NCBI GenBank assembly: GCA_016183565.1
Contig: JACPEJ010000003.1
Coordinates: forward strand, 1 to 48,701
Origin: Candidatus Blackburnbacteria bacterium
Lineage (GTDB): Bacteria > Patescibacteriota > Microgenomatia > UBA8517 > UBA10165
Direction of reading: 5' to 3'
DNA length: 48,701 nt
Shown piece by piece: positions 6,413-48,701 of this stretch; position 1 is the stretch's first letter, and every line of letters begins with the position of its first letter. Under the pieces are notes generated by a model. It had not been told where the DNA came from, ran no database searches, and worked only from the letters and a program-made list of their open reading frames with translations. A program made the position numbers and the translations under genes.

Positions 6413-7063
6413 TTATGCCCTGCGTTCAAGAACAACCACTTGTCGCTCTTCTGGCAGTTTATCCAAGCTTACTGTGTACTTGTCAAGGCGCAAGGGTTCA
6501 ACCCCTGTTTCTTTTATAAAATCATCAATACCTGAAAGTTCTGAGAATGTTGCAGGATTCAGGCCTGGAACTTTGTAGTGCATTGGTATAACAACCTTCG
6601 GTTCAATTGCAGAAACAATTTCCACAGCTTTAGCAGGTCCTATTGTGTAGACATCACCGACTGGAATAAAGAGAATGTCGATAGTGCCTATTTCGCTTAT
6701 TTGTTCGGAGGAAAGTTTGTGCCCCAAATCTCCTAAATGACAGAGCTTGATCCCGTCTATGGTTATAGCATAGATAGTGTTGGCTCCGCGCTCTTTACCG
6801 TTTTGATTATCATGGTATGAGTGGATCCCAAAAATAGAAATTTCTTTTATTTCATACTCACCCGGTCCATCAACAACTTTTGGGTTGCCTTCTACTCCTT
6901 TCAAGTTGTTGTGGTCTTTGTGGTCGTGGGAAATTGTAACAATATCAGCTTCAACTTTGGGGAATTTTAATCCAACCATATCAGGAGAAAACGGGTCAGT
7001 AACTAAAGAAGCATCTTTACCTTTAATTCTAAAAGAAGAGTGTCCAAGCCATACAATATCCAT
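6413..7063 (-). CDS. MBL-fold metallo-hydrolase (UPF0173-like)
   Basis: 216 aa. Starts MDIVWLGHSSFRIKG and has an ISHDHKDH metal-binding motif. Confidence 0.85.
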   Translation of the reverse strand: MDIVWLGHSSFRIKGKDASLVTDPFSPDMVGLKFPKVEADIVTISHDHKDHNNLKGVEGNPKVVDGPGEYEIKEISIFGIHSYHDNQNGKERGANTIYAITIDGIKLCHLGDLGHKLSSEQISEIGTIDILFIPVGDVYTIGPAKAVEIVSAIEPKVVIPMHYKVPGLNPATFSELSGIDDFIKETGVEPLRLDKYTVSLDKLPEERQVVVLERRA

Positions 7064-25254: not shown

Positions 25255-26256
25255 TTGAAAATTATGCTAATCCCTCCTAAATACATACTTACTCCCAAAA
25301 TATCTCAACTTTTAAGTTCAATTGAGGCGTCAAAAGAGGTTATAAACTCGATAACAATTCCTCCTGAAGTAGAAACGAATATCCGACGTTTATCAACTTT
25401 AAAAAGCTCCTTGTTCTCCGCGCGCATAGAAGGCAATACTTTGACTTTGGACGATATACAAAGGAGTCCATCTCGTGATCAAAAAAAAGCAGAAGTTTTT
25501 AATATACTAAAAGCCTTGAATTGGGTTTATCAAAGAAGATATAGAGATTTGACAACAAGGCACATACTCGAGCTTCATTTTACTGTTCTTGGTGGACTTA
25601 TTGAAAGACAGGAGTTGGGAAAGTTCAGGCGAGAGGTAAACGCTATATTTAATACTGCAGGAATCGCTGTATACCTCCCTCCCCCGCCTCGGCAAATATC
25701 TTCTCTTATAGATCGTTTTCTTAAGTTTGCCAATAGCAATAAAGAACCTTTTGTTCCGGTCCGAGCTTGTCTTGCTCATTATACTTTTGAAAAAATCCAT
25801 CCGTTTTTGGAGGGTAATGGCCGTGTGGGAAGGCTCATTCTCCAGGCAGTTTTGGAGAAAGGCGGATATGGGATGAAGGGGCTTGTACCTGTCGAGGAGT
25901 ATTTGGATAGTAATCGAAGTCTTTATTACAGAGCTTTGGATGAGACCGAACGAGACGTAACCGGATATTTGGAATTTTTGCTTGAGGCAATTTCTGAGAC
26001 TTCGGAGAAGACAAAAATAATGGTTTTGGAAAAACAGAAGGTGGAAATTGAAGATATACTTCTTCCCAGACGAGCAGAGATATTTAATATCATAAAAGAT
26101 CATAGACTTGTTAATTTTGATATTATAAGAAGGCGGTTTATGGTTGTTAATGAGCGCACACTGCGGTATGATCTTAAAAAACTTACTGACATGGGGCTTA
26201 TAAGGAAACGTGGGGCAACGAAGGGGGTTTATTACGAACCAGCTAGGACACCTTAG
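25255..26256 (+). CDS. Fic family protein
   Basis: Fic motif HPFLEGNGRVGR, plus a C-terminal winged-helix-like domain. Confidence 0.85.
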   Translation: MKIMLIPPKYILTPKISQLLSSIEASKEVINSITIPPEVETNIRRLSTLKSSLFSARIEGNTLTLDDIQRSPSRDQKKAEVFNILKALNWVYQRRYRDLTTRHILELHFTVLGGLIERQELGKFRREVNAIFNTAGIAVYLPPPPRQISSLIDRFLKFANSNKEPFVPVRACLAHYTFEKIHPFLEGNGRVGRLILQAVLEKGGYGMKGLVPVEEYLDSNRSLYYRALDETERDVTGYLEFLLEAISETSEKTKIMVLEKQKVEIEDILLPRRAEIFNIIKDHRLVNFDIIRRRFMVVNERTLRYDLKKLTDMGLIRKRGATKGVYYEPARTP

Positions 26257-33570: not shown

Positions 33571-33842
33571 ACCCAAAAGTAATCATTGAATCCCTGTCTA
33601 TGGATTTACTTAGGGCTGCATTGGCATTACATAGAGGTTCATTTTCCACAGCAGAAAGATTTAAAGAGGAGGCTCTAAAAAGAAGTGCAGAGTTAGAACC
33701 CTTCCTGAAGTCAGATCAACATCTCCAGAAACTTGCCGCGAATACCAAAAAGGCTCTAGAGGAAAATTCAGAAGACATTGCAGAGGATTTACTGATGTAC
33801 AGTGTCAGATTCAAAAATCTGGCTCGGTTTAAATTTTCCTAG
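33567..33842 (+). CDS. hypothetical helical protein
   Basis: 91-aa ORF apparently translationally coupled to the previous one. Confidence 0.4.
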   Translation: MNPKVIIESLSMDLLRAALALHRGSFSTAERFKEEALKRSAELEPFLKSDQHLQKLAANTKKALEENSEDIAEDLLMYSVRFKNLARFKFS

Positions 33843-34212
33843 AGTTTTTCTTGAGCCATGAAGAGATTCCTTCGAGAGATCTGTTCTTAGTGGCAACTTC
33901 TACCATAAAATCTACCATTCTCTCTTTTGCGGGCTTTAACACGTAACCGTTCTTTCTTAAGAATCTCGCAGTAGAAAAATAAGCGGTTCGTTTGTTGCCA
34001 TCCTGAAATGGATGATTTTTAACAAGTGAGTGGAGCAAACTTGCTGCCATCAGCCAAATAGAAGTATATAGGTAACTGCCTGCAAATTGCGCCTTTGGTC
34101 GTTCAATCGCAGAATGCAATAGAGTGAAATTGTGTATCCCTGCTCTTCCGCCACCTATTTGGAGCATCTTATCATGAATGGCCAAGACTTCGTCAAGGGT
34201 AACAAATTTCAC
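33829..34212 (-). CDS. doc: Fic/Doc family toxin (death-on-curing type)
   Basis: HPFQDGNKRTAY degenerate Fic motif typical of Doc. Has a 4-nt overlap with the upstream antitoxin gene. Confidence 0.85.
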   Translation of the reverse strand: MKFVTLDEVLAIHDKMLQIGGGRAGIHNFTLLHSAIERPKAQFAGSYLYTSIWLMAASLLHSLVKNHPFQDGNKRTAYFSTARFLRKNGYVLKPAKERMVDFMVEVATKNRSLEGISSWLKKNSRKI

Positions 34213-34970: not shown

Positions 34971-35069
34971 CTGCTCCGTTAAATCTTTGATTTAACGGGA
35001 AAGGGTTTAAGTATTGTCCAATCGACCAATTAGTACAAGTAGGCTTAAACCCTTACGGGTCTTACACCA

Positions 35070-35233: not shown

Positions 35234-35347
35234 ACTCGCGCACAGCGCGAGTCAGCCATAAAGCTATTAGGCTATAAAGCTATGATGTCTTTTCTTCATA
35301 GCTCTATTGCTTCATTGCGACATAGCTAACTTGTGCTATGCACAAGT
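35234..35347 (-). repeat. hairpin-bounded rRNA mini-insertion, copy E1 (core type A)
   Basis: actcgcgc-aca-gcgcgagt at 35234-35252 and acttgtgc-tat-gcacaagt at 35329-35347. The core is rich in ataaagctatt / cttcatagct. Confidence 0.8.
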
Positions 35348-35640: not shown

Positions 35641-36452
35641 CATTTAAACCTATCCATTTTCATGGTAGCCTGACTATACCTTCACCCACTGAAACAAAAT
35701 GGGTGTCAACGTATTATGAAATGAGGTTTCTCATTTCATCTGTCCCGATGTAACTCGGGACAAGTCGATACGGGGTCAAGTTAATTAGACGATAGATGAT
35801 AGAAAATAGAAAATAGATCTTTGATGATAGAAAATAGACAATGGATTAATAAGTTTTCCAGTTATTCCTTAGGTTGGTAATTTTTCCACCTAAAGCAATA
35901 TACCTTGTAATTAACCCGTTGCAAACATCCTTATTTATAAAACCTAAATCTCTTGCCATGCTTAAATGAACTTCCATTTCATTGCAAGAGCCTAAGGACT
36001 TATCAAGGTGGACCTTAAATTCTTTTTCAAATCTCCTTTTAGCCCACCCTTCTGCAATATTTGCTGGAGGTGATTTAGAGCATCTTCTCAGTTGAGAACC
36101 TAAATCATTTTTCTCATACATTGGAAGTTTTTGACAAAGTTTGTTGACAATAATTGCCAATTCATAACTTTCTTTGTACACTCCCAAATCTTTGAAGCTC
36201 GTTATCATATCTCCATTATCTATCTTCTATCTTCAAATTACTATCTTCTACCCTCTATCATCTACCGTCCACACTAACCGACTTCCCACGGTATTACCCT
36301 GTGTCATTATTTAACTTTGAACCAAATCCAAAGTCAAGTCTGTTTTTGACCTTAAGGGCTCCACCGTTATGAGTTGATATTTCGTTCAAACCACTGGGTA
36401 GTGTTTGAACAACAGCACTCTGACGTTGCCGTCGGAGGACCCCGATATGTTG
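35641..36452 (-). mobile_element. group I intron in 23S after the E. coli U2500 equivalent
   Basis: The exon reads CUACCU|...|CGAUGUCGGCUC. The 5' exon ends in U and the intron ends in G. Core motifs GAAGGUAUAGUC (35672-35683), GACCCCGUAUCGAC (35764-35777) and GGGUAAUACCGUGGGAAGUCGG (36278-36300). Confidence 0.8.
35846..36208 (-). CDS. four-helix-bundle protein (23S rRNA intervening-sequence protein family, TIGR02436-like)
   Basis: 120 aa. FKDLGVYKESYELA, QLRRCSKSPPANIAEGW and GSCNEMEVHLSMA match the family pattern. It lies wholly inside the intron. Confidence 0.88.
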   Translation of the reverse strand: MITSFKDLGVYKESYELAIIVNKLCQKLPMYEKNDLGSQLRRCSKSPPANIAEGWAKRRFEKEFKVHLDKSLGSCNEMEVHLSMARDLGFINKDVCNGLITRYIALGGKITNLRNNWKTY

Positions 36453-40612: not shown

Positions 40613-40902
40613 ACTTCGGTATCTTTTCCTCTGGGTACTTAGATGTTTCAGTTCCCCAGGTGCCCCCTGCTGCGGCTATATTCCGATAAATCGAAAATTT
40701 TACCACAGAGTCTCCGACGATGAAGTCGGAGGGGTTTCCCCATTCGGAAACCATCGGATAAATGGATGTTGGCTCCTACCCGATGAGTATCGCCGCCAAC
40801 TGCGTCCTTCTTCGGCAACTTGCACCAAGGCATTCACTGTTTGCGTTCTTTAGGACAATACAAAAACCCTTGCCACGTTCATGTAAACTGAACGTGGCCT
40901 AA

Positions 40903-40929
40903 ATGAGCAAAGCGACAAGAAAATTTGTG
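40903..40929 (-). promoter_or_regulatory. 5' strand of the pre-23S processing stem
   Basis: Complementary to 34944-34970 at 26 of 27 positions. Confidence 0.7.
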
Positions 40930-41069
40930 TTCAAATCTCTTATCACTTTGTTTAAAATTTCAATTGTTAAAGTGCCCTTCGACTTCGCCAAGTCAGACTT
41001 GGCTTCGCTCAGGGTAAACTGACCCTGCAAAGTATGGCTTGCACTGAGCAAGCGAAGCGTGCCGAAGTG

Positions 41070-41142
41070 TGGACCCGGGCGGGATCGAACCGCCTACCTC
41101 CTCATTGCAAATGAGGTGTTCAACCAACTAAACTTCGGGCCC
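41070..41142 (-). tRNA. tRNA-Ala (UGC)
   Basis: Minus-strand cloverleaf. Acceptor GGGCCCG/CGGGTCC with G3-U70, anticodon loop TTTGCAA, T arm GGCGG-TTCGATC-CCGCC. No CCA is encoded. Confidence 0.9.
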
Positions 41143-41318
41143 GTAAAAACTGAAAAAGCTGGCAAGAGCCAGCTTTCTTATGAGAAGTTGTACAAATCAA
41201 CGGACTATACTTTGAGGCAGTATGTCCCTGACGGGATGTTTGAAAAGAGTCGGGAACTTCTCATTAATTATGCTGCTTCTTGCGCTTTAGTGTATTTTAA
41301 TCTCAATTGAGCTTGCTG

Positions 41319-42023
41319 TCAATGGGAAAGATGAATTCTCCATTTCTGTGGAATTATACAACTCTGCTCGAACATTTTTTGAACGGAACTGACCGCCTCC
41401 GCTTCCCGCCTGCGCCGAGGCTTCGGCGGGCAGGCGCTCCGGCGGAACGCTCGGGCGCGGCGGAATTCTGCTTCTAAAATAACTGGCAATTCTTTCACTC
41501 CATCACTTCCGCTAAAGTGTCCTTTAGCGTGTTCAATCGCCGTTTTCGCGCCAAGCCGTTCCTCAAAAAGTTTTTTGTTTTCTTGCGGCACAACCTCATC
41601 GTCATCGGAAAATACCGCAAAAAACTTTTTGGTATGTTGCTTCACTTTAGCAAACTCAATCGGCGTTTCCAACCACGACTTGGCAATTTCTTTTTCCTCA
41701 TCGGTTTTCAAGTTCATTAAAGTGAACCAACCGGCGACAAAAGTCGCACCTCCAACTTTTTTGTCGGCGGGCAGACTTTCCAAAAAACGGAGAATGGTTT
41801 GGCAACCGATACTGTGTCCGACAAAGTAAGTATTCTTATCAACATCGCCGACAATTTTGGAAAAGTGCGAAACCCACGCTTCAATTTTCGGCTCCTCCGA
41901 TTCCGGCATAGCCGGAACATGAACTTGAAAACCATTTTTCTCAAGCTCTGTTTTTAGCCACGGAAACCAGCCCTCATCAGGGTAGCCGTCCCAGCCGTGA
42001 ATTATGAAAGCTCGTTTAGTCAT
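41319..42023 (-). CDS. alpha/beta hydrolase (YdeN/RBBP9-like serine hydrolase) with an aberrant C-terminal extension
   Basis: The ATG at 42023 gives MTKRAFIIHGWDGYP. Nucleophile elbow GHSIG. The last ~45 codons (EFRRARAFRRSACPPKPRRRRE...) are read through a GC-rich palindromic element. Confidence 0.75.
   Translation of the reverse strand: MTKRAFIIHGWDGYPDEGWFPWLKTELEKNGFQVHVPAMPESEEPKIEAWVSHFSKIVGDVDKNTYFVGHSIGCQTILRFLESLPADKKVGGATFVAGWFTLMNLKTDEEKEIAKSWLETPIEFAKVKQHTKKFFAVFSDDDEVVPQENKKLFEERLGAKTAIEHAKGHFSGSDGVKELPVILEAEFRRARAFRRSACPPKPRRRREAEAVSSVQKMFEQSCIIPQKWRIHLSH
41385..41475. repeat. GC-rich palindromic element inside the hydrolase 3' end
   Basis: gcctgc[gccga-ggct-tcggc]gg-gcaggc hairpin. 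The 20-mer at 41449-41468 is the exact inverted copy of 2516-2535. Confidence 0.6.
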
Positions 42024-42027
42024 AAAG

Positions 42028-42360
42028 TTATGGTTCGTCCACATATTCGAGAAAAAGTTTTCTCTCGAAACCACCTCGTTCTATTTTCTTTTTCTCTTTT
42101 TGTTTTTCAACCTCAACAATCGTCGTGTTGTTGTTTAGTGCGATTGACTCCAACAACTGAAGAACATCTGATAACTCATTCAAAATTTCCTCGTCAGTTT
42201 TTGCTTCCAGTAATTCTTTTGCTTCCTCAACCAGCTTTTCTTTTAAGGCAATTTTGAATTGATCGTCATTCAATTCTGAAACTTTTGGGACAGCATTATT
42301 CTTTTTGATAATCTCTGGAATTCTATCCCTTATTAGCTTGTTATAAGTTTTCCGGTTCAT
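42028..42360 (-). CDS. MazG-like nucleoside triphosphate pyrophosphohydrolase
   Basis: 110 aa. YNKLIRDRIPEII and the KLVEEAKELLEA/ELSDVLQLLE helices are typical of small MazG-type enzymes. Confidence 0.7.
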   Translation of the reverse strand: MNRKTYNKLIRDRIPEIIKKNNAVPKVSELNDDQFKIALKEKLVEEAKELLEAKTDEEILNELSDVLQLLESIALNNNTTIVEVEKQKEKKKIERGGFERKLFLEYVDEP

Positions 42361-42540
42361 GTTATTTCAAAACTTGGTAATGAAGTTGAATTTCGTTATC
42401 AGTATCAGTTATTTTCTTTTGACCCAAAAGTTTCAACGCTTCTTTTGGCGAGTGAGCAATTAGGTGATTTGGTCCCAAAGTTTGATATTGGTGGACTCTC
42501 TACGAACAAATTCGGACTGATTTCAAAATACGAACGTCGT

Positions 42541-42610
42541 AGCTCCGGCCCCGCTTCGCGTGGCCTCCGCTTTTTTGCGCGCGCGATTTTTTGCTCGGCT
42601 GAGGCCGAGC
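42541..42610. repeat. GC-rich element
   Basis: A GC spike between AT-rich genes containing the hairpin ttgctcggc-tga-ggccgagcaa. The 85-aa ORF across it is judged spurious. Confidence 0.45.
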
Positions 42611-42618
42611 AATAAACA

Positions 42619-43365
42619 TCAAATTCTTGAATTCTTAAGTGTCGATAAGATTGTCTCAACAAGAATATTATTTTGTTCTGTTGAGGAATTAATTATATAA
42701 AAATAATCCTTTTGATTTGGAAAAACATAATCCTTGGGATCAATAGCAAGAAAATAATATTTATGAGTCCCAAGACCTCTTGATTTGTATGTAAACCCTG
42801 AGTAACTACCTATAGAAATTGGTTTTGTTGTTTCTAGCACATCTCCAACTTCTTTTGAATTTGCAACTTCCTTTTCAACAACCTGCTCCAAAGTTTGAGT
42901 TGTGGGATACTGGACTCTTTTTATTCTAAACTCAAGTCCTTCTATTTCTTTAATTTTATATTTATCAAGATTTGATTCATCAAACATTATAAAATGTGCA
43001 TAGTTATCACTCGTTTCACCATATGTAATATTTTTAGGGTGTTTTACTGTAAAACCGTCAGCTCGTGATCCTGATTCGATCCAGTCACTTGTATCAATTA
43101 GGTTTTGTTCTTGAGAAAGCGGGGTGGTAGATGGTATTGTAGATGGCAGAACTGTATCATTATTCAATGGCTTTTGTCCGGAAAGATTACTGTTCTGCTT
43201 TCCTAAGAAATAACCACCAACGCCAAAAACTAGTGAGCAAAGAACGGAAACTACAATAATTGCAGTAAGATTAGTTTTTGGCTTATCTGGAACAGTTGGT
43301 TGAGCAACTGGATTTTGGCCGACTGGTTGGGTATTTTGATTACCCACATTAATTTTATTTTCCAT
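42619..43365 (-). CDS. membrane-anchored hypothetical protein
   Basis: ATG at 43365 follows a GGAGA RBS. One TM segment (LTAIIVVSVLCSLVFGVGGYFLG) followed by an ectodomain. Confidence 0.55.
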   Translation of the reverse strand: MENKINVGNQNTQPVGQNPVAQPTVPDKPKTNLTAIIVVSVLCSLVFGVGGYFLGKQNSNLSGQKPLNNDTVLPSTIPSTTPLSQEQNLIDTSDWIESGSRADGFTVKHPKNITYGETSDNYAHFIMFDESNLDKYKIKEIEGLEFRIKRVQYPTTQTLEQVVEKEVANSKEVGDVLETTKPISIGSYSGFTYKSRGLGTHKYYFLAIDPKDYVFPNQKDYFYIINSSTEQNNILVETILSTLKNSRI

Positions 43366-43420
43366 ATTTATCTCCAAGAAAAAGTATATCATTTTCTTTT
43401 AAAAGTTGGTATATTGGAAT

Positions 43421-43504
43421 TGTAACCAACTTAATCGATTGCTTTTTTTGATGGCCGCATTGGACAGCTTGAGCAATCGAGTTGGTTACAACCAGTGCGG
43501 CCAT
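43421..43504 (+). ncRNA. interleaved inverted repeats (two mutually exclusive helices)
   Basis: A 43421-43442 pairs with A' 43473-43490 (18 bp plus a 4-nt bulge). B 43451-43463 pairs with B' 43492-43504 (13 bp, including one G-U valid only on the + strand). The order is A-B-A'-B'. Confidence 0.4.
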
Positions 43505-43594
43505 TTAAGTTTTTAGAACATTAATAATTTTTGCATTTTTCTTTTCCGCCAAGGGCGGTGTCCGAGCCGACTTTTTCGGAGGCCGAAGGCCATC

Positions 43595-43623
43595 TTGACA
43601 ATGTCTTATAATTGAGTCATAAT
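43595..43623 (+). promoter_or_regulatory. sigma70-like promoter of the phd-relE pair
   Basis: TTGACA (43595-43600), 17-nt spacer, CATAAT (43618-43623). The ATG at 43632 is only 8 nt downstream of the -10 element. Confidence 0.45.
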
Positions 43624-43631
43624 TATGATGT

Positions 43632-43910
43632 ATGAATCTACCCATTATTCCAACCATCAAATCGGTAACTGATCTTAGATATCAAACCGCAGATATTATA
43701 AAGCTTTTAGAGCAAAACCAGCCCGTAGTAGTGACAAGAGATAATGACACTATCGCAGTTATACTTTCTCCCACCCAATATCAACAAATTATTCACCTTT
43801 TTGAAGAACTAGAAGAAGAAAAAGCAGTACAAAGATTGGAGAAGGCAATTAAAAAAGGAGGAAAGTTTATTGATTTTGACTTATTTGACAACAAACAACG
43901 TAAAAAGTAA
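43632..43910 (+). CDS. Phd/YefM family antitoxin
   Basis: 92 aa. SVTDLRYQTADIIKLLEQNQPVVVTRDNDTIAVILS is the typical Phd/YefM N-terminus. Confidence 0.8.
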   Translation: MNLPIIPTIKSVTDLRYQTADIIKLLEQNQPVVVTRDNDTIAVILSPTQYQQIIHLFEELEEEKAVQRLEKAIKKGGKFIDFDLFDNKQRKK

Positions 43911-43922
43911 AAGGTTGCCTAA

Positions 43923-44183
43923 ATGTACAAGATCTTCATCGAAAAGAAGGCGGCAAAATTTCTCTCCAAGTTAGACTCAAAAACTTACCGAATAGTCTCA
44001 AATGCCATCAAGAAACTCTCCCACTTTCATGAAACAAAAAATTTAGACATAAAACCTCTTAAGGGAAAATTTGAAAATATGCTAAGACTTAGAGTTGGAT
44101 CAAGAAGGGTTCTTTTCACCGTTAATGAACTGAAAAAAGAAATTAAGATTTGGATTATAGAAAACCGAGGAGATATTTATTGA
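43923..44183 (+). CDS. RelE/ParE family toxin
   Basis: 86 aa. KKAAKFLSKLD and LRLRVGSRRVLFTV..I.IWIIENRGDIY patterns. Confidence 0.8.
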   Translation: MYKIFIEKKAAKFLSKLDSKTYRIVSNAIKKLSHFHETKNLDIKPLKGKFENMLRLRVGSRRVLFTVNELKKEIKIWIIENRGDIY

Positions 44184-44230
44184 AAAATGTGGCGAGCGCC
44201 ATTCCCGACTCGCAGAATTCTCCATTTCTG

Positions 44231-44302
44231 TGGGTGCGCATGGAATCGAACCATGTACTTCTAAATTATCAGTTTAGCGTTCTGCCAGTGAACTACGCAC
44301 CC
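44231..44302 (-). tRNA. tRNA-Ile (GAU)
   Basis: Minus-strand cloverleaf. Acceptor GGGTGCG/CGCACCC, anticodon loop CTGATAA, T arm CATGG-TTCGATT-CCATG. No CCA is encoded. Confidence 0.9.
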
Positions 44303-44423
44303 AAATCTTGTAAAAGTATATCACAAAAAGTGTATCACAAATTGAGGCTGTGGGTATACAAAAAACCCATCTAGTAGTAGGTGGGTTTAGTGTCTTGATC
44401 TTCCCAATCTTAGCACTTGGCTT

Positions 44424-44461
44424 TCCCGCCCGCAGCGCTTAAGCGCAGCTTTGGCGGGCGG
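44424..44461. repeat. GC palindrome in the 16S/tRNA-Ile spacer
   Basis: cccgcccgc ... gcgggcggg flanking the internal palindrome gcgcttaagcgc. Confidence 0.6.
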
Positions 44462-44599
44462 GTCAGTATTATTCATACACGCCTCGTGCTGCGATTTTGG
44501 GAGGATTTCGGACTATTTTAAAATTTTTTTAAAAGTCCTCAACAATCAAAACGTGACTGGAAACTTATGATTCCGTTAGATTATCGAGCAACGGTTTTC

Positions 44600-44700
44600 G
44601 TATAGCTCGGGGTAATAGTTAGGCCATAAAGCTATTAAGCTATGAGGCTATCAAGCTTAATTGCTCAATAGCTCTATTGCTTCATAGCCTACGGCCTTGC
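44600..44700 (-). repeat. core-only relative of the type A mini-insertion, in the spacer just 3' of 16S
   Basis: ccataaagctattaagctatgaggctat...atagctctattgcttcatagcc resembles the type A core. The terminal hairpins are absent. Confidence 0.5.
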
Positions 44701-44784
44701 CGTATATACTCCTTAGAAAGGAGGTGATCCATCCGCACCTTCCAGTACGGATACCTTGTTACGACTTAGTCCTCATCGCTGAGT

Positions 44785-45348
44785 TCACCTTAGGACCCAC
44801 TTAATTGCGGGTACTTCGGGTGCCCCCAACTTTGCTGGCTTGACGGATTGCACTTTACTTGAGGTTGTAGTGCGTTCCCACCCGACGAGCGGATTTCCCG
44901 CACCGGGCGAGCCGAAATGTTTTTGAAGCTCGTTATGAAGTGTATTCATTGTGAGCTTTAACTGCCAAACTTTATTTAATTCCTCTTTTGTAAGCTTGCG
45001 TATATCTTGCCGACCACGAACGATCTGAGCAACACGAGCAAACCTTTCAAAAGATTCCCTTTTGACACCTTGTAAGTGGTGTTTTTGGAAAAATGGAACT
45101 ATTGAGCCGTAGATCTCGGCTTGTCGAGTTACCTCATAAACGAAGGTTGTTTTGTGCTTGTCGTTGCCTTGAAATTTTCTATATACATAACCAACTTTAA
45201 AAAATTCAAAAACTTTATCTAAAAGTTCCTTATTATCAAAGCGTTGCGTAATAAAATATCTTAAGACGATTCGACAATCTGGCCTTATTTGAACCAGAAA
45301 ACATCCCTCGCCATCAGTTAACCCAACAATATAGTCTGCAGTTAGCAT
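44785..45348 (-). CDS. single-motif LAGLIDADG homing endonuclease
   Basis: 187 aa. DYIVGLTDGEGCF motif. The last ~20 codons run past the insertion boundary (44846) into the helix 44 exon. Confidence 0.8.
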   Translation of the reverse strand: MLTADYIVGLTDGEGCFLVQIRPDCRIVLRYFITQRFDNKELLDKVFEFFKVGYVYRKFQGNDKHKTTFVYEVTRQAEIYGSIVPFFQKHHLQGVKRESFERFARVAQIVRGRQDIRKLTKEELNKVWQLKLTMNTLHNELQKHFGSPGAGNPLVGWERTTTSSKVQSVKPAKLGAPEVPAIKWVLR

Positions 45349-45735
45349 TCCGTAGATTCCTTCGGTATTGATTCGGGTATATATCCAGCTTATGTGAATA
45401 TCTACCTTCTGTCAATACCTACTATGAATCTGCTGACTTCCTGTAAGGTAATTACCTCCACCCTAACAGGATCTCCGTGGGTCATTATATTCTCTCTTCT
45501 AAACATGAATGACGGATTTTCTTTAGCTGACTTCCTTCCGACCGCCCGGCGAAAGTCGCCAATCCTCTTTTGTGTCATCCCTGTTCTTTGTCTCAGGCCC
45601 TCCAACCAAATTAGTTACCCAATCTGGTCTGCCATTTTTGACTACGTTTGCACAGACGTTATGCAAAGGTAGGACTTCAACCTACTAGAGGATATAACTG
45701 CCACGCGCGTTCTAGTACTCAAGCTGAATACTATA
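44846..45735 (-). mobile_element. unclassified 890-nt insertion in the 16S decoding centre (between C1403/C1404 equivalents)
   Basis: Flanks read ACACCGCC | ... | CGUCAAGCC. With the 1-nt C ambiguity, neither possible boundary gives an exon-U/intron-G pair. The shared group I core motifs are not seen. Confidence 0.65.
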
Positions 45736-46067
45736 GGCGGTGTGTACAAAGAGCGAGAACGTATTCACCGCGGTTTAGCTGACCCGCGATTACTACCAAT
45801 TCCAAGTTCATGCAGGCGAGTTGCAGCCTGCAATCCCAACTGAGAGAAGGTTTGAGGGATTAGCTCCGCCTCGCGGCTTGGCAACCCATTGTCCTTCCCA
45901 TTGTAGTATGTGTGTTGCCCCGGATATAAGGGCCATGCGGACTTGACGTCGTCCCCTCCTTCCTCCCGAGCTAAGCTCGGGCAGTCCCATATGAACAATT
46001 TAACATATGGCAGGGGTTGCGCTCGTTGCGGCACTTAAGCCTACACCCTACGGCACGAGCTGACGAC

Positions 46068-46870
46068 CACGTTTATTTAACTATTACTAGTAGCGTGGAC
46101 TATACCTTCACCCCGACGTTACGTCGGGGGCCAACCGTATGAATGGTACTTTAAAAGTTTCCATTCTCACCCCGCCCTTATGCGGGGATCAGTCTCTACG
46201 GGGCAAAAGTTTGACCGAATATTTTTGCAGCTCAGGTAAAACTTCATCCCAAAATTTTCTTTTAAGATAAAGAACCCAAGTGCCTGCAGAATCGTAGTGA
46301 TACAAGCTAACATTTGTTTTTCCAAACAAACTCACATCTCTTATCGCATCGTCTTGATTTCCGTAGGCTATACGTACTCTCAAACGTGCTCCTTTATCAA
46401 CAGAACCATCTCCATCTATCCTGCCAGCCAAATAAGCTGGTAGAAATTTATCAGGAACAGTAAAGTTTTTCTCCTTAAAAGGTAGAAGAAACCTTACAAA
46501 CGCTCTGTTGTTAACGTAAAGATGATATGCTACTTGTTTTCTTTTTCTCCCAACTGGCTTATAAAGCCTGTATTTTATAATACAGTTTGGCAGGTGTCTT
46601 TTAAGAAAAGACTCGAACCTTCTTATAAGTCGCATATCGGTAGAAGAAAGACCAATAGAACTTGACCACCAATAACCATCTGCAAGCCAAAGACCTAAAA
46701 TATAGAAATCTTCAGCAGTTTTCGGCCACACTTTGCTTCCCACGGTATTACCCTTTGATATTTCATCTTAACCCGAAGGTTAACCGAAAATCAAGTGGGG
46801 CTTCACCGTTTTGGGTTGGTTATTTTTGTCCGACGTTACCATCGGACCGGCCATCATCCCTTGCGGGACT
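46068..46870 (-). mobile_element. group I intron in 16S after the U1060 equivalent
   Basis: Exons read GCAUGGCU | ... | GUCGUCAGCUCGUG. P1 is UGGCU/GGCCG and P10 is GAUGAU/GUCGUC. Core motifs GAAGGUAUAGUCC (46098-46109), GCCCCGUAGAGAC (46192-46204) and GGGUAAUACCGUGGGAAG (46737-46755). The intron ends in G. Confidence 0.8.
46189..46743 (-). CDS. compact double-motif LAGLIDADG homing endonuclease
   Basis: 184 aa with a GTG start. Motifs ILGLWLADGYW and YLAGRIDGDGSV. Both ORF ends overlap conserved intron core motifs. Confidence 0.75.
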   Translation of the reverse strand: MGSKVWPKTAEDFYILGLWLADGYWWSSSIGLSSTDMRLIRRFESFLKRHLPNCIIKYRLYKPVGRKRKQVAYHLYVNNRAFVRFLLPFKEKNFTVPDKFLPAYLAGRIDGDGSVDKGARLRVRIAYGNQDDAIRDVSLFGKTNVSLYHYDSAGTWVLYLKRKFWDEVLPELQKYSVKLLPRRD

Positions 46871-47001
46871 AGCCATGCAACACCTGTCCTGCACCCTCGA
46901 AGGCGACCCCATTTCTGGGGCTTGCAGCAGGATGTCAAACCCGGGTAAGGTTCTTCGGTTCGTATCGAATTAAACCACATGCTCCACTGGTTGTGCGCTC
47001 T

Positions 47002-47050
<49 letters not shown>

Positions 47051-47081
47051 CTCGCTTAACGCGTTAGCTATGGAACCCACT

Positions 47082-47225
47082 ACTCGCGCACAGCACGAGT
47101 CAGCCATAAAACAGCAAAGCTGTCTTCAACTTCGTATAAAGCTATTAGGCTATAAAGCTATGATGTCTTTTCTTCATAGCTCTATTGCTTCATCGCTTCA
47201 TCGCTAACTTGTGCTATGCACAAGT
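47082..47225 (-). repeat. hairpin-bounded rRNA mini-insertion, copy E7 (core type A, h26 region)
   Basis: actcgcgc-aca-gcacgagt at 47082-47100 and acttgtgc-tat-gcacaagt at 47207-47225. Confidence 0.8.
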
Positions 47226-47275
47226 AACAGATCCCTAGCGAGCATAGTTTACGGCTAGGACTACAGGGGTCTCTA

Positions 47276-47739
47276 CAAGTTTGTTGCACAAACTTAAATT
47301 CAAAATTTAAAGTTCAAAATGCAAAATTACATTTTAAAATTAAAGGTTGAAAAAGTTTCGGCTAAGACATTTCTGCTCAGCTCTCCATGTTGCCATGGAG
47401 GTCGGACTATATCTTCATCCCGAGCTAAGCTCGGGAGCCGACGTGTAGTCTCTACGGGGTCAAGTTACTATTGAGGCTAGACAGTAGAAACTAGATGTTA
47501 GAACTTGATGCTAGATGTTTGAGCCTAGTAGGTGCTTTACAAACTTCTAAATCACGAAACGTCTTTTATCATCAAGCATCGACCTTCTAACTTCAAGGTC
47601 GAACTTCTAATTTCCATCGTCTAACCTCAACATAACCGACTTCCCTCGGTATTACCCTTCGACTTTGTTCAGGGCTTCACCGATACAGTTGGATTTTCTC
47701 ACGTAGTGTTACCACTACGGGGGACTAGAGACAAGCTCC
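47276..47739 (-). mobile_element. ORF-less group I intron in 16S after the U788 equivalent
   Basis: Exons read GCGAAAGGGAU | ... | UAGAGACCCCUGUAGUCC. P1 is GGGAU/GUCCC and P10 is GUCUCUA/UAGAGAC. Core motifs GAAGAUAUAGUCC (47404-47416), GACCCCGUAGAGAC (47448-47461) and GGGUAAUACCGAGGGAAGUCGG (47636-47659). Confidence 0.82.
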
Positions 47740-48294
47740 ATCCCTTTCGCTCCCCTAGCTTTCGTTCCTCAGCGTCAGATATTTCCTAGGTGCCCGCCTT
47801 CGCTGTTGGTGTTCCTGTCGATATCAACGGATTTCACCCCTCCACCGACAGTTCCAGCACCCCCGGAAGATCTCTAAGCATGATCGTATCTTGCGACCAA
47901 TCCCGATTAAGTCGAGATCTTTAACACAAGACGCATCACGCCGCCTACGAACTCTTTACGCCCAGTAAATCCGGACAACGCTTGCACCCTCCGCATTACC
48001 GAGGCTTCTGGCACGGAGTTAGCAGGTGCTTATTCTCCCCGACGTGTGTCGGGACAAAAGGAGTTTACAACCCGAAGGCCTTCATCCCCCACGCGGCGTC
48101 GCGGCGTCAGACTTTCGTCCATTGCGCACGATTCCCGGTTGCTGCCACCCGTAGGTGTAAGGACCGTGTCTCAGTTCCTTTCTGGGGGGTCGTGCTCTCA
48201 CACCCCCTACCCGTCATAGCCTTGGTAGGCCGTTACCCTACCAACTAGCTGATAGGCCGCAGGTCGTTCCCTAAGCGCGCCGTTAAGCGCTTTT

Positions 48295-48438
48295 ACTCAC
48301 GCACAGCACGAGTCAGCCATAAAACAGCAAAGCTGTCTTCAACTTCGTATAAAGCTATTAGGCTATAAAGCTATGATGTCTTTTCTTCATAGCTCCATAG
48401 CTTCATTGATACATAGCTAACTTGTGCTATGCACAAGT
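48295..48438 (-). repeat. hairpin-bounded rRNA mini-insertion, copy E8 (core type A)
   Basis: actcacgc-aca-gcacgagt at 48295-48313 and acttgtgc-tat-gcacaagt at 48420-48438. The core is nearly identical to E7. Confidence 0.8.
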
Positions 48439-48520
48439 GGTATGGAGTATTACCCCGTCTTTCGACGAGCTATTCTTCTCCCTAAGGTAAGTTCTCACGC
48501 GTTACTCACCCGTCTGCCAC

Positions 48521-48639
48521 TCTCGTGCGAAGCACGAGAACTACGAACTGAGAACTTAGAACAAAGAATAAAAATAAATTATTCCTTATTGTTCTTAGTT
48601 CTTGGTTCTTTGTTCATAGTGCTTGTGCTCCGCACAAGC
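48521..48639 (-). repeat. hairpin-bounded insertion, copy E9 (core type C, expands h6)
   Basis: tctcgtgc-gaa-gcacgaga at 48521-48539 and gcttgtgc-tcc-gcacaagc at 48621-48639. The core is a long gaacttagaac/gttcttagttc hairpin. Confidence 0.7.
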
Positions 48640-48657
48640 GTTCGACTTGCATGCCTA

Positions 48658-48700
<43 letters not shown>

Positions 48701-48701
48701 A

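Follow-up and report, generated by a model that had tools for sequence, protein, structure and literature searches.

The contig analysed here (below, the window: the whole of JACPEJ010000003.1, 48,701 nt, from assembly GCA_016183565.1 of a Candidatus Blackburnbacteria bacterium) carries on its minus strand an rRNA locus in which five protein-coding genes lie between tRNA-Ile(GAU) and tRNA-Ala(UGC). On that strand the order is 16S, tRNA-Ile(GAU), the five-gene interval, tRNA-Ala(UGC) and 23S. The assembly amounts to 885 kb with 41% GC, which is typical of the candidate phyla radiation (CPR). The provenance of the interval, termed here the islet, and its bearing on the transcription of the rRNA genes are the subject of what follows.

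Layout of the locus and the genes of the islet

Both tRNAs were placed by Rfam and ARAGORN, and an Rfam scan of 40860-44720 returned these two tRNAs and no other RNA family. The 16S gene has large insertions with two LAGLIDADG open reading frames (ORFs), because of which the Rfam 16S match stops early, at 46812; the conserved 16S terminus, GGATCACCTCCTT, is found at 44718-44730. With the 23S 5' end at 40860, tRNA-Ile lies 414 nt past 16S and tRNA-Ala ~208 nt ahead of 23S, the two tRNAs being 3,087-3,088 nt apart, and from the 16S 3' end (44717) to the 23S 5' end there are ~3,856 nt. The initial annotation, a model's reading of the letters of the window, had put these intervals at 414, 209 and 3,088 nt, and they hold on remeasurement, as does the processing stem that it had seen around 23S (40941-40890 with 34981-34930), which is intact, with a perfect core of 17 nt and -49 kcal/mol. 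Listed along the minus strand, the features are the following.

44716-48701, minus: 16S rRNA gene, its 5' end cut by the contig end; true 3' end ~44717
44360-44385, minus: predicted terminator-like hairpin in the gap between 16S and tRNA-Ile (CCCACCTA-CTAC-TAGATGGG, then T6), read by eye
44315-44323, minus: extended -10 box TGATATACT, 12 nt ahead of the tRNA-Ile 5' end
44230-44302, minus: tRNA-Ile(GAU)
44215-44233: direct repeat copy 1, minus-strand CCACAGAAATGGAGAATTC, overlapping the last 3-4 nt of tRNA-Ile
43923-44183, plus: putative RelE/ParE-superfamily toxin, 86 aa, antisense to the rRNA
43632-43910, plus: Phd/YefM antitoxin, 92 aa, above the PF02604 cut-off
43595-43623, plus: promoter-like site of phd-relE, TTGACA-17-CATAAT, 11/12
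43405-43591: conserved non-coding element between the phd promoter and the membrane-protein gene
42619-43365, minus: membrane-anchored protein, 248 aa from ATG, GGAG ribosome-binding site, no Pfam family
42535-42618: GC-rich palindromes after the membrane-protein gene
42028-42360, minus: MazG-like / PRA-PH NTP pyrophosphohydrolase, 110 aa, PF01503
41319-42023, minus: serine hydrolase, PF06821, native down to about 41470; 41319-41469 is read-through into a repeat element
41348-41468, minus: copy of a GC-rich repeat element, ending in a TATAAT box, with a nested 30-nt palindrome and abutting repeat copy 2
41333-41351: direct repeat copy 2
41294-41322, minus: predicted rrn-type promoter of the tRNA-Ala-23S-5S unit, TTGACA-17-TAAAAT, 11/12, directly after repeat copy 2
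41153-41267, minus: conserved leader of the 23S unit, with a TTAATGAGAA motif at 41267-41258 and a hairpin and T-run at 41178-41153
41069-41142, minus: tRNA-Ala(UGC)
40965-40975, minus: boxA-like GCACTTTAACA after tRNA-Ala
40890-40941, minus: 5' strand of the 23S processing helix, pairing with 34981-34930

The two plus-strand genes form a toxin-antitoxin (TA) pair of the kind that the initial annotation had named, Phd/YefM with RelE/ParE antisense to the rRNA and under a promoter of its own. The antitoxin matches PF02604 with 34.5 bits against a cut-off of 29.8, and its gene is 12 nt upstream of the toxin ORF; the promoter match ends 8 nt ahead of the ATG, and the predicted mRNA would be nearly leaderless. 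The 86-aa ORF itself has no Pfam match at threshold, and its match to TIGR02385 (RelE_StbE), full length as it is, is weak (E 0.023, 15.2 bits against a cut-off of 27.9). Calling it a putative RelE-superfamily toxin, though it falls below profile thresholds, is our own naming, which draws on a match to PDB 1wmi, the Pyrococcus aRelE (E 0.0047), on 53 homologues at 65-95% identity whose farther kin (42-45%) carry PF05016, and on a beta-alpha-alpha-beta4 model with RelE, YoeB and YafQ as best fold matches, the model being a weak one (pLDDT 69.5, TM ~0.4). The homologues at 65-95% sit in metagenomic and Gottesmanbacteria/Microgenomates records.

The remaining three genes are co-oriented with the rRNA, again as first annotated, with Pfam matches for the second and third. 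For the membrane-anchored protein a PsbP-like fold serves as a lead only, and the MazG-like protein is a marginal match to PF01503 (23.1 bits, cut-off 21.3). The hydrolase matches PF06821 (Ser_hydrolase) with E 1e-22 and 81.1 bits; GHSIG, SDDDE and HAKGH are visible in its translation, and the profile is thereby joined by a GxSxG nucleophile with Asp and His. Of the alpha/beta hydrolase first annotated the gene is indeed present, while the 3' end of its ORF is non-native: its last five codons and stop have been swapped for a GC-rich repeat element, and the frame extends ~50 aa, to 41319, because the native stop has been replaced in this way. In other loci the protein ends ...LPVILEAILSQ*. A decayed piece of a hydrolase N-terminus occurs on another contig of the assembly (C3:66064-66150; 69% identity over 29 aa, with an internal TAG). 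In GC content the TA, membrane-protein and MazG-like genes are among the lowest 1-3% of the genome's long ORFs, with the hydrolase being typical. The GC-rich palindromes described earlier as interspersed in the interval are there, for example at 42535-42618.

Between the phd promoter and the membrane-protein gene is the conserved non-coding element, whose core (43405-43521) holds two helices, one of 8 bp and one of ~20 bp, interleaved as B5'-A5'-B3'-A3', and whose upstream module (43522-43591) has GC hairpins. Covariation in the core is strong, with 59 doubly changed cells as against 21 in shuffles (0 of 500 shuffles reach 59), and pairing is 82% versus 27-43% in slid controls. The element has no Rfam family. 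Its distribution is patchy: 19 of 139 genomes in the order have it, and a single genome may contain as many as 5 copies, in contexts unrelated to one another. With 28 G-U versus 38 A-C cells, the core could belong to either strand. The element could be a mobile structured motif of either RNA or DNA.

The bracketing repeat and the distribution of the islet genes

The islet is bracketed by a perfect 19-bp direct repeat with copies 2,882 nt apart and no third site in the assembly; by our own arithmetic the chance expectation of a 19-bp repeat in 4 kb is ~3e-5. One copy is at the 3' end of a tRNA, as in att-type repeats, but its overlap with the tRNA is just 3-4 nt. The unoccupied site would read tRNA-Ile, a single repeat copy and then ATCTTTCCCATTGACA. 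Without the insert the spacer from tRNA-Ile to tRNA-Ala is 205 nt, that of family relatives being 302-1,614 nt. None of the five islet ORFs has an integrase or recombinase domain of the sort expected in a tRNA-targeting island. An insertion sequence or transposon was rejected as the vehicle, there being neither terminal inverted repeats nor a transposase, and 19 bp being longer than the usual target-site duplication. An integron cassette was likewise rejected, since inspection by eye of the hydrolase-unit flanks in 21 loci revealed no attC-type (RYYYAAC...GTTRRRY) boundaries, and no integrase is present on the contig.

The GC-rich element that has supplanted the hydrolase terminus belongs to a family, GGGGGGAATTCCGCCGCGCCCGAGCG...GTTGTATAATTCCAC, that terminates in a -10-like box, and its usual end, ...TATAATTCCAC, falls exactly where repeat copy 2 begins. 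Inverted copies flank a pair formed by the MazG-like gene and the hydrolase in two metagenome loci (L062:4726-4816 and 6630-6719; L082:34-67 and 1902-1935). In the community the element is hugely abundant, with a summed contig depth of ~15,000 in one groundwater run.

The spacer was compared with those of relatives, as the initial annotation had proposed, with a set of 40 genomes of the same family or order from which 20 of the 16S-23S regions were fetched; by tblastn none of the five islet proteins is encoded in those 20 regions. Elsewhere in the genomes of relatives the hydrolase occurs in 15 of 41, with a best identity of 50%, and the MazG-like gene in 12 of 41, adjoining neither each other nor rRNA. 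The islet's RelE type was found in none of 138 other genomes of the order (E 1e-10). The block is absent from the site in relatives and atypical in composition, the hydrolase with its typical GC being the exception.

The hydrolase is the most travelled of the five. It is present in 80 JGI/ENA metagenome loci at 51-96% identity, in none of them beside 16S or 23S, and among the 50 loci at 80% identity or more (range 80-96%), which come from groundwater metagenomes, there are at least 31 distinct upstream flanks. DNA homology between the metagenome loci and the window starts at the hydrolase ATG (42024) and stops at 41469, just short of the stop; among the loci other than the window it extends past the stop into a GC-rich hairpin. 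The MazG-like gene accompanies the hydrolase in ~10 metagenome loci. The hydrolase start often overlaps the stop of the upstream gene (ATGA), and in 13 of the 80 loci a tRNA is within 500 nt (12 kinds of tRNA; ~4-7 expected). The gene would thus move with ORF-precise borders. Neither the hydrolase nor RelE has a match in viral contigs, nor the whole islet in phage records.

Given the repeat, the absence of the genes from relatives' spacers, the many contexts of the hydrolase and a RelE type that was not found in the order, the block reads as a lineage-specific, composite insertion and the islet as a mosaic of mobile pieces. The repeat that brackets it speaks for arrival of the final block, or of the last piece of it, by recombination at the tRNA-Ile flank.

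Transcription units in the window and in relatives

The initial annotation had suggested a search for promoters upstream of tRNA-Ala, and one is predicted there, the TTGACA-17-TAAAAT of 41322-41294. Matches of 11/12 or better number just 57 in the 885-kb assembly, both strands included. Across the order 16 of 18 loci have a match of at least 10/12 at a distance of 144-407 nt before tRNA-Ala, against a background of 0.055 per 300 nt, and it is present too in G008, whose gap from tRNA-Ile to tRNA-Ala is 302 nt. Each of these promoters is followed ~30 nt on by a TTAATGAGAA-like motif and ~85 nt further by a hairpin and T-run, the hairpin having compensatory changes in 5 of 7 pairs. Applied to the leader alignment, RNAalifold finds the terminal hairpin only, since divergence elsewhere in the leader defeats MAFFT, and a long-range TAATGAGAA/TTCTCATTA pairing was noted solely on visual inspection.

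The 16S leaders of five complete relatives, and that of a second 16S in the bin, have a promoter, a hairpin with T-run and a boxA-like GCACTTTGAA, an architecture that the 23S-unit leaders and the relatives' 16S leaders have in common. The rRNA leaders of the order at large, before both 16S and tRNA-Ala-23S, run promoter, TTAATGAGAA-like motif, covarying hairpin with T-run and boxA-like GCACTTTRA. A terminator-like hairpin within an rRNA leader suggests an attenuation or antitermination signal. On the other side of the islet, an extended -10 box precedes the 5' end of tRNA-Ile by 10-16 nt at 10 of the 17 loci compared across the order. The hairpin at 44360-44385, between 16S and tRNA-Ile, has a loop and mismatch outside the rules of the terminator scan.

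The 16S-23S distances of relatives are 1.0-10.6 kb, and what fills them varies by genus:

G002: antisense Phd-PIN pair
G005: ATP-citrate-lyase-like genes and GNAT
G007: Obg
G010: GIY-YIG
G012: large serine recombinase beside tRNA-Ile
family f3: conserved TraG/VirD4-like gene

In all relatives of family f1 with extra genes this cargo lies upstream of the 23S-unit promoter, and because it does so the independent promoter looks ancestral; the islet would then have settled at a boundary between transcription units. Family f3 and G002 have tRNA-Ile in the opposite orientation to the rRNA. Among the 11 family-f3 loci fetched, 9 have this inverted tRNA-Ile, antisense to the rRNA, and 8 (in the range L022-L032) have the TraG/VirD4-like gene, of ~710-740 aa and also antisense to the rRNA, between 16S and 23S. 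In four loci, L014 (G002), L018 (G008), L020 (G009) and L025 (G019), an intact tRNA-Ile(GAU) is nested between the 5' and 3' halves of an older tRNA-Ile, whose 5' half stops in the anticodon loop and whose 3' half restarts there. A small hairpin and a TGATATATC box stand ahead of the inner tRNA-Ile, which is flanked by perfect inverted repeats of 11-12 bp, the sequence of which is genome-specific. From such comparisons the spacer appears to be a recurrent landing site.

The initial annotation had left a choice between an operon transcribed through mRNA genes and one split in two by an insertion. Neither wording fits, as the split predates the insertion: 16 of 18 loci have promoter and leader ahead of tRNA-Ala, short-gap relatives included. 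It had also opposed an insertion to an older unlinked state. The block is an insertion, by the repeat, its absence from relatives' spacers and its mobile or foreign genes, and this insertion did not split an operon. The finding that was to speak for the older state was the same block in relatives together with ancestral independent promoters; ancestral promoters are indeed what the comparison suggests, but not an ancestral gene block.

Origin of the islet and its meaning

We give a probability of about 72% to the reading that a composite islet of ~2.88 kb integrated 3' of tRNA-Ile in a CPR rRNA locus of Microgenomates type that already consisted of separate transcription units. Before the insertion there would have been three of these, 16S, tRNA-Ile and tRNA-Ala-23S-5S. 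The islet, with Phd-RelE, the membrane protein and structured element, the MazG-like gene and the hydrolase, would have entered immediately 3' of tRNA-Ile, duplicating 19 bp and coming to occupy precisely the gap from tRNA-Ile to the 23S-unit promoter and leader. With that promoter downstream of the islet, 23S and 5S synthesis would need no read-through from mRNA genes, and the insertion would be tolerated for that reason; it probably does little harm, the 23S half having had its own promoter beforehand. The promoters presumably fire, and the hairpins presumably stop or attenuate transcription. A recombinase acting in trans, or since lost, would have produced the 19-bp repeat. The TA pair is presumably active and helps the islet to persist; it may lock the islet in.

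Several points weigh against integration in this manner. Profile searches reveal no integrase or transposase in the islet or anywhere on the contig (matches to PF00589 and PF00239 in the assembly are on contigs C2 and C3 only), and there are no terminal inverted repeats at 41352/44214. An empty site, or a joint that skips the 2,882 nt, was not seen among the matches listed from Logan contigs of four groundwater runs. (Short-sided Logan joints such as 41126>41941 and 42590>43487, with sides of 20-29 nt at 85% likeness, were set aside as other organisms or repeats.) The repeat takes in just 3-4 nt of the tRNA and ends at the end of the repeat element, and could stem from joining of another kind; GC and distribution vary from module to module, and the islet may be a multi-step build. 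Promoters and terminators are all consensus predictions, and a search for RNA runs containing the stretch listed none. The leader hairpin with its T-run is 11 nt ahead of tRNA-Ala, so that transcription of the 23S unit has to pass through this hairpin. The closest relatives sampled are at 84-88% 16S identity, too distant to bracket when the insertion occurred. Within the repeat element, 41377-41714 is not spanned by the Logan contigs listed. Further, the bin has a second partial 16S (contig C2:1-917, model positions 9-742) that differs from that of the window, to which it is 84% identical, and matches relative G003 at 100% identity over 288 nt; either two organisms may be mixed in the bin or the contig C2 end may be chimeric, and statements about the organism's own genome beyond this contig are therefore weak.

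Piecemeal growth is unlikely, though it deserves a hearing. On that account several small insertions or rearrangements built up the interval, and the 19-bp repeat is a by-product of the last joining, at CCAC microhomology, rather than an att site. The modules do differ in GC (33% versus 44%) as well as in distribution; the pair of MazG-like gene and hydrolase occurs alone in ~10 metagenome loci, two of them with inverted GC-rich flanks; the coincidence of the element end TATAATTCCAC with the start of repeat copy 2 is in keeping with it; and the hydrolase 3' end would have been cut by a separate event. Against this, a perfect 19-bp duplication that brackets all the modules is most simply produced by insertion of one pre-assembled block, and an intermediate arrangement was not found in Logan contigs or metagenome loci.

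Rather doubtful, and more adventurous, is the idea that the gap from tRNA-Ile to the 23S-unit promoter is, in this CPR order, a recurrent landing pad that works without an integrase of its own, taking in and releasing small ORF-precise cassettes bounded by portable GC-rich terminator/promoter modules. The hydrolase in at least 31 contexts with an excess of nearby tRNAs, the inverted GC-rich elements and the nested tRNA-Ile of four relatives point this way. If true, the landing pad would amount to a so far undescribed form of CPR gene mobility aimed at the boundaries of tRNA and rRNA transcription units.

Does a single operon persist, with polymerase from the 16S promoter reading through tRNA-Ile, the TA pair and three genes into tRNA-Ala-23S-5S? 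Of the five genes three point the same way as the rRNA, most of the GC-rich palindromes have no T-run after them, no canonical terminator was called in the islet on the rRNA strand, and the boxA-like element past tRNA-Ala could serve antitermination. It is nevertheless improbable in view of the near-consensus promoter and rrn-type leader just downstream of the islet, conserved across the order, of the terminator-like hairpin and separate -10 box that flank tRNA-Ile, and of the strong convergent promoter predicted for the TA pair; the inverted tRNA-Ile or antisense genes in many relatives' spacers imply, moreover, that co-transcription is not the ancestral rule.

That the arrangement is an artefact of assembly or binning, a chimeric join at a repeated GC-rich element, is very improbable. 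The metagenome is extremely rich in the element at 41385-41521, the perfect Logan contigs listed fail to cross 41377-41714, and the bin has its second partial 16S at 84% identity. However, 41971-44492 and 41097-41376 are matched without a difference by Logan contigs of two runs, which bridge both outer junctions, one joining tRNA-Ile to the repeat and RelE and the other joining the element end to the repeat, promoter and tRNA-Ala; depth in run X3 is even at ~29, and a collapsed repeat would still leave an insertion between the two repeat copies. Scarcely credible is a gene block ancestral to the unlinked arrangement and lost or replaced in relatives: spacers in the order are generally 1-10.6 kb long and a long spacer as such is old, but none of the five genes is in the spacers fetched from relatives, searches of the order's other genomes did not turn up the RelE type, the bracketing repeat is perfect and the hydrolase is in dozens of other contexts.

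How does integration of an islet between pre-existing units relate to what has been described elsewhere? Protein genes between CPR 16S and 23S genes have been published (Lui et al. 2021; Brewer et al.), and the present case is a well-delimited new example. Brewer et al. (bioRxiv 10.1101/705046, ISME J 2020) define rRNA genes as unlinked when the internal transcribed spacer exceeds 1,500 bp and count Patescibacteria among the clades with exclusively unlinked rRNA genes, and Lui et al. 2021 (PMC8172020), with a criterion of >2,000 bp, report unlinked rRNA in 27 of 34 circularised CPR genomes, with spacers that contain tRNAs and protein genes, some on the opposite strand. The ~3,856 nt found here exceed both limits, and phd-relE on the plus strand between minus-strand rRNA genes provides the opposite-strand sign of unlinked rRNA. 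The long 16S-23S distance, the spacer tRNAs and protein genes and the clade-specific pattern are thus common to the published cases and this one. In the parts of those papers drawn on here the operons are classified by distance and strand only, whereas in the present case the block is delimited to the base, its cargo identified and a second rrn-type promoter and leader predicted by comparison. What is new, then, is that one insertion has been bounded exactly, that its cargo has been identified and found to be mobile, and that comparison makes a case for the second rrn-type promoter and leader.

A likeness to tRNA-associated islands is evident in the insertion at a tRNA 3' end, the perfect direct repeat, the accessory and TA cargo of atypical composition, and the reuse of the site in relatives (a serine recombinase beside tRNA-Ile, tRNA-half remnants). 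Unlike them the islet is without an integrase, its repeat includes 3-4 nt of the tRNA, and it is 2.9 kb long and within an rRNA spacer. Type II RelE/ParE-Phd/YefM modules on mobile islets and integron cassettes likewise have the order antitoxin then toxin, sizes such as the 92 and 86 aa here, a promoter of their own and a place in acquired DNA, and by analogy stabilising the surrounding DNA may be a role in common; the present toxin, however, is under Pfam/NCBIfam cut-offs, and there is no attC or intI. The rrn antitermination of the E. coli type, with its boxB hairpin and boxA, has a counterpart in the hairpin followed by boxA-like GCACTTTAACA or GCACTTTGAA in the 23S-unit and 16S leaders, though the hairpin here has an intrinsic-terminator-like T-run, and a full second promoter is predicted before the spacer copy.

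The locus offers a base-resolved case of an rRNA locus that tolerates foreign genes. Since the 16S, tRNA-Ile and 23S parts each have promoter-like signals of their own, the boundary between units would be a safe harbour for an islet, and the second rrn-type promoter and leader of the 23S unit may be why unlinked arrangements are so common in the order. A practical corollary is that 16S-ITS-23S amplicon or operon profiling (ITS, internal transcribed spacer) will fail or mislead on such organisms.

Some minor features of the neighbourhood may be added. The Rfam 23S match ends at 36342, the processing helix putting the true 3' end near 34990, and the stretch beyond 36342 seems to encode a peptide like the four-helix bundle of 23S intervening sequences (23S-IVS). 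A dispersed 66-nt repeat at 44623-44688, in the spacer between 16S and tRNA-Ile, has copies within the rRNA insertions at 35255, 39156, 39363, 40036, 47136 and 48349, and also on contigs C2 and C3. Going by translations, a Doc-type toxin-like ORF at 33829-34212 follows closely on the 5S region, downstream of it, and a Fic-family-like one lies further along at 25255-26256; TA-type genes seem to be clustered around the rRNA locus.

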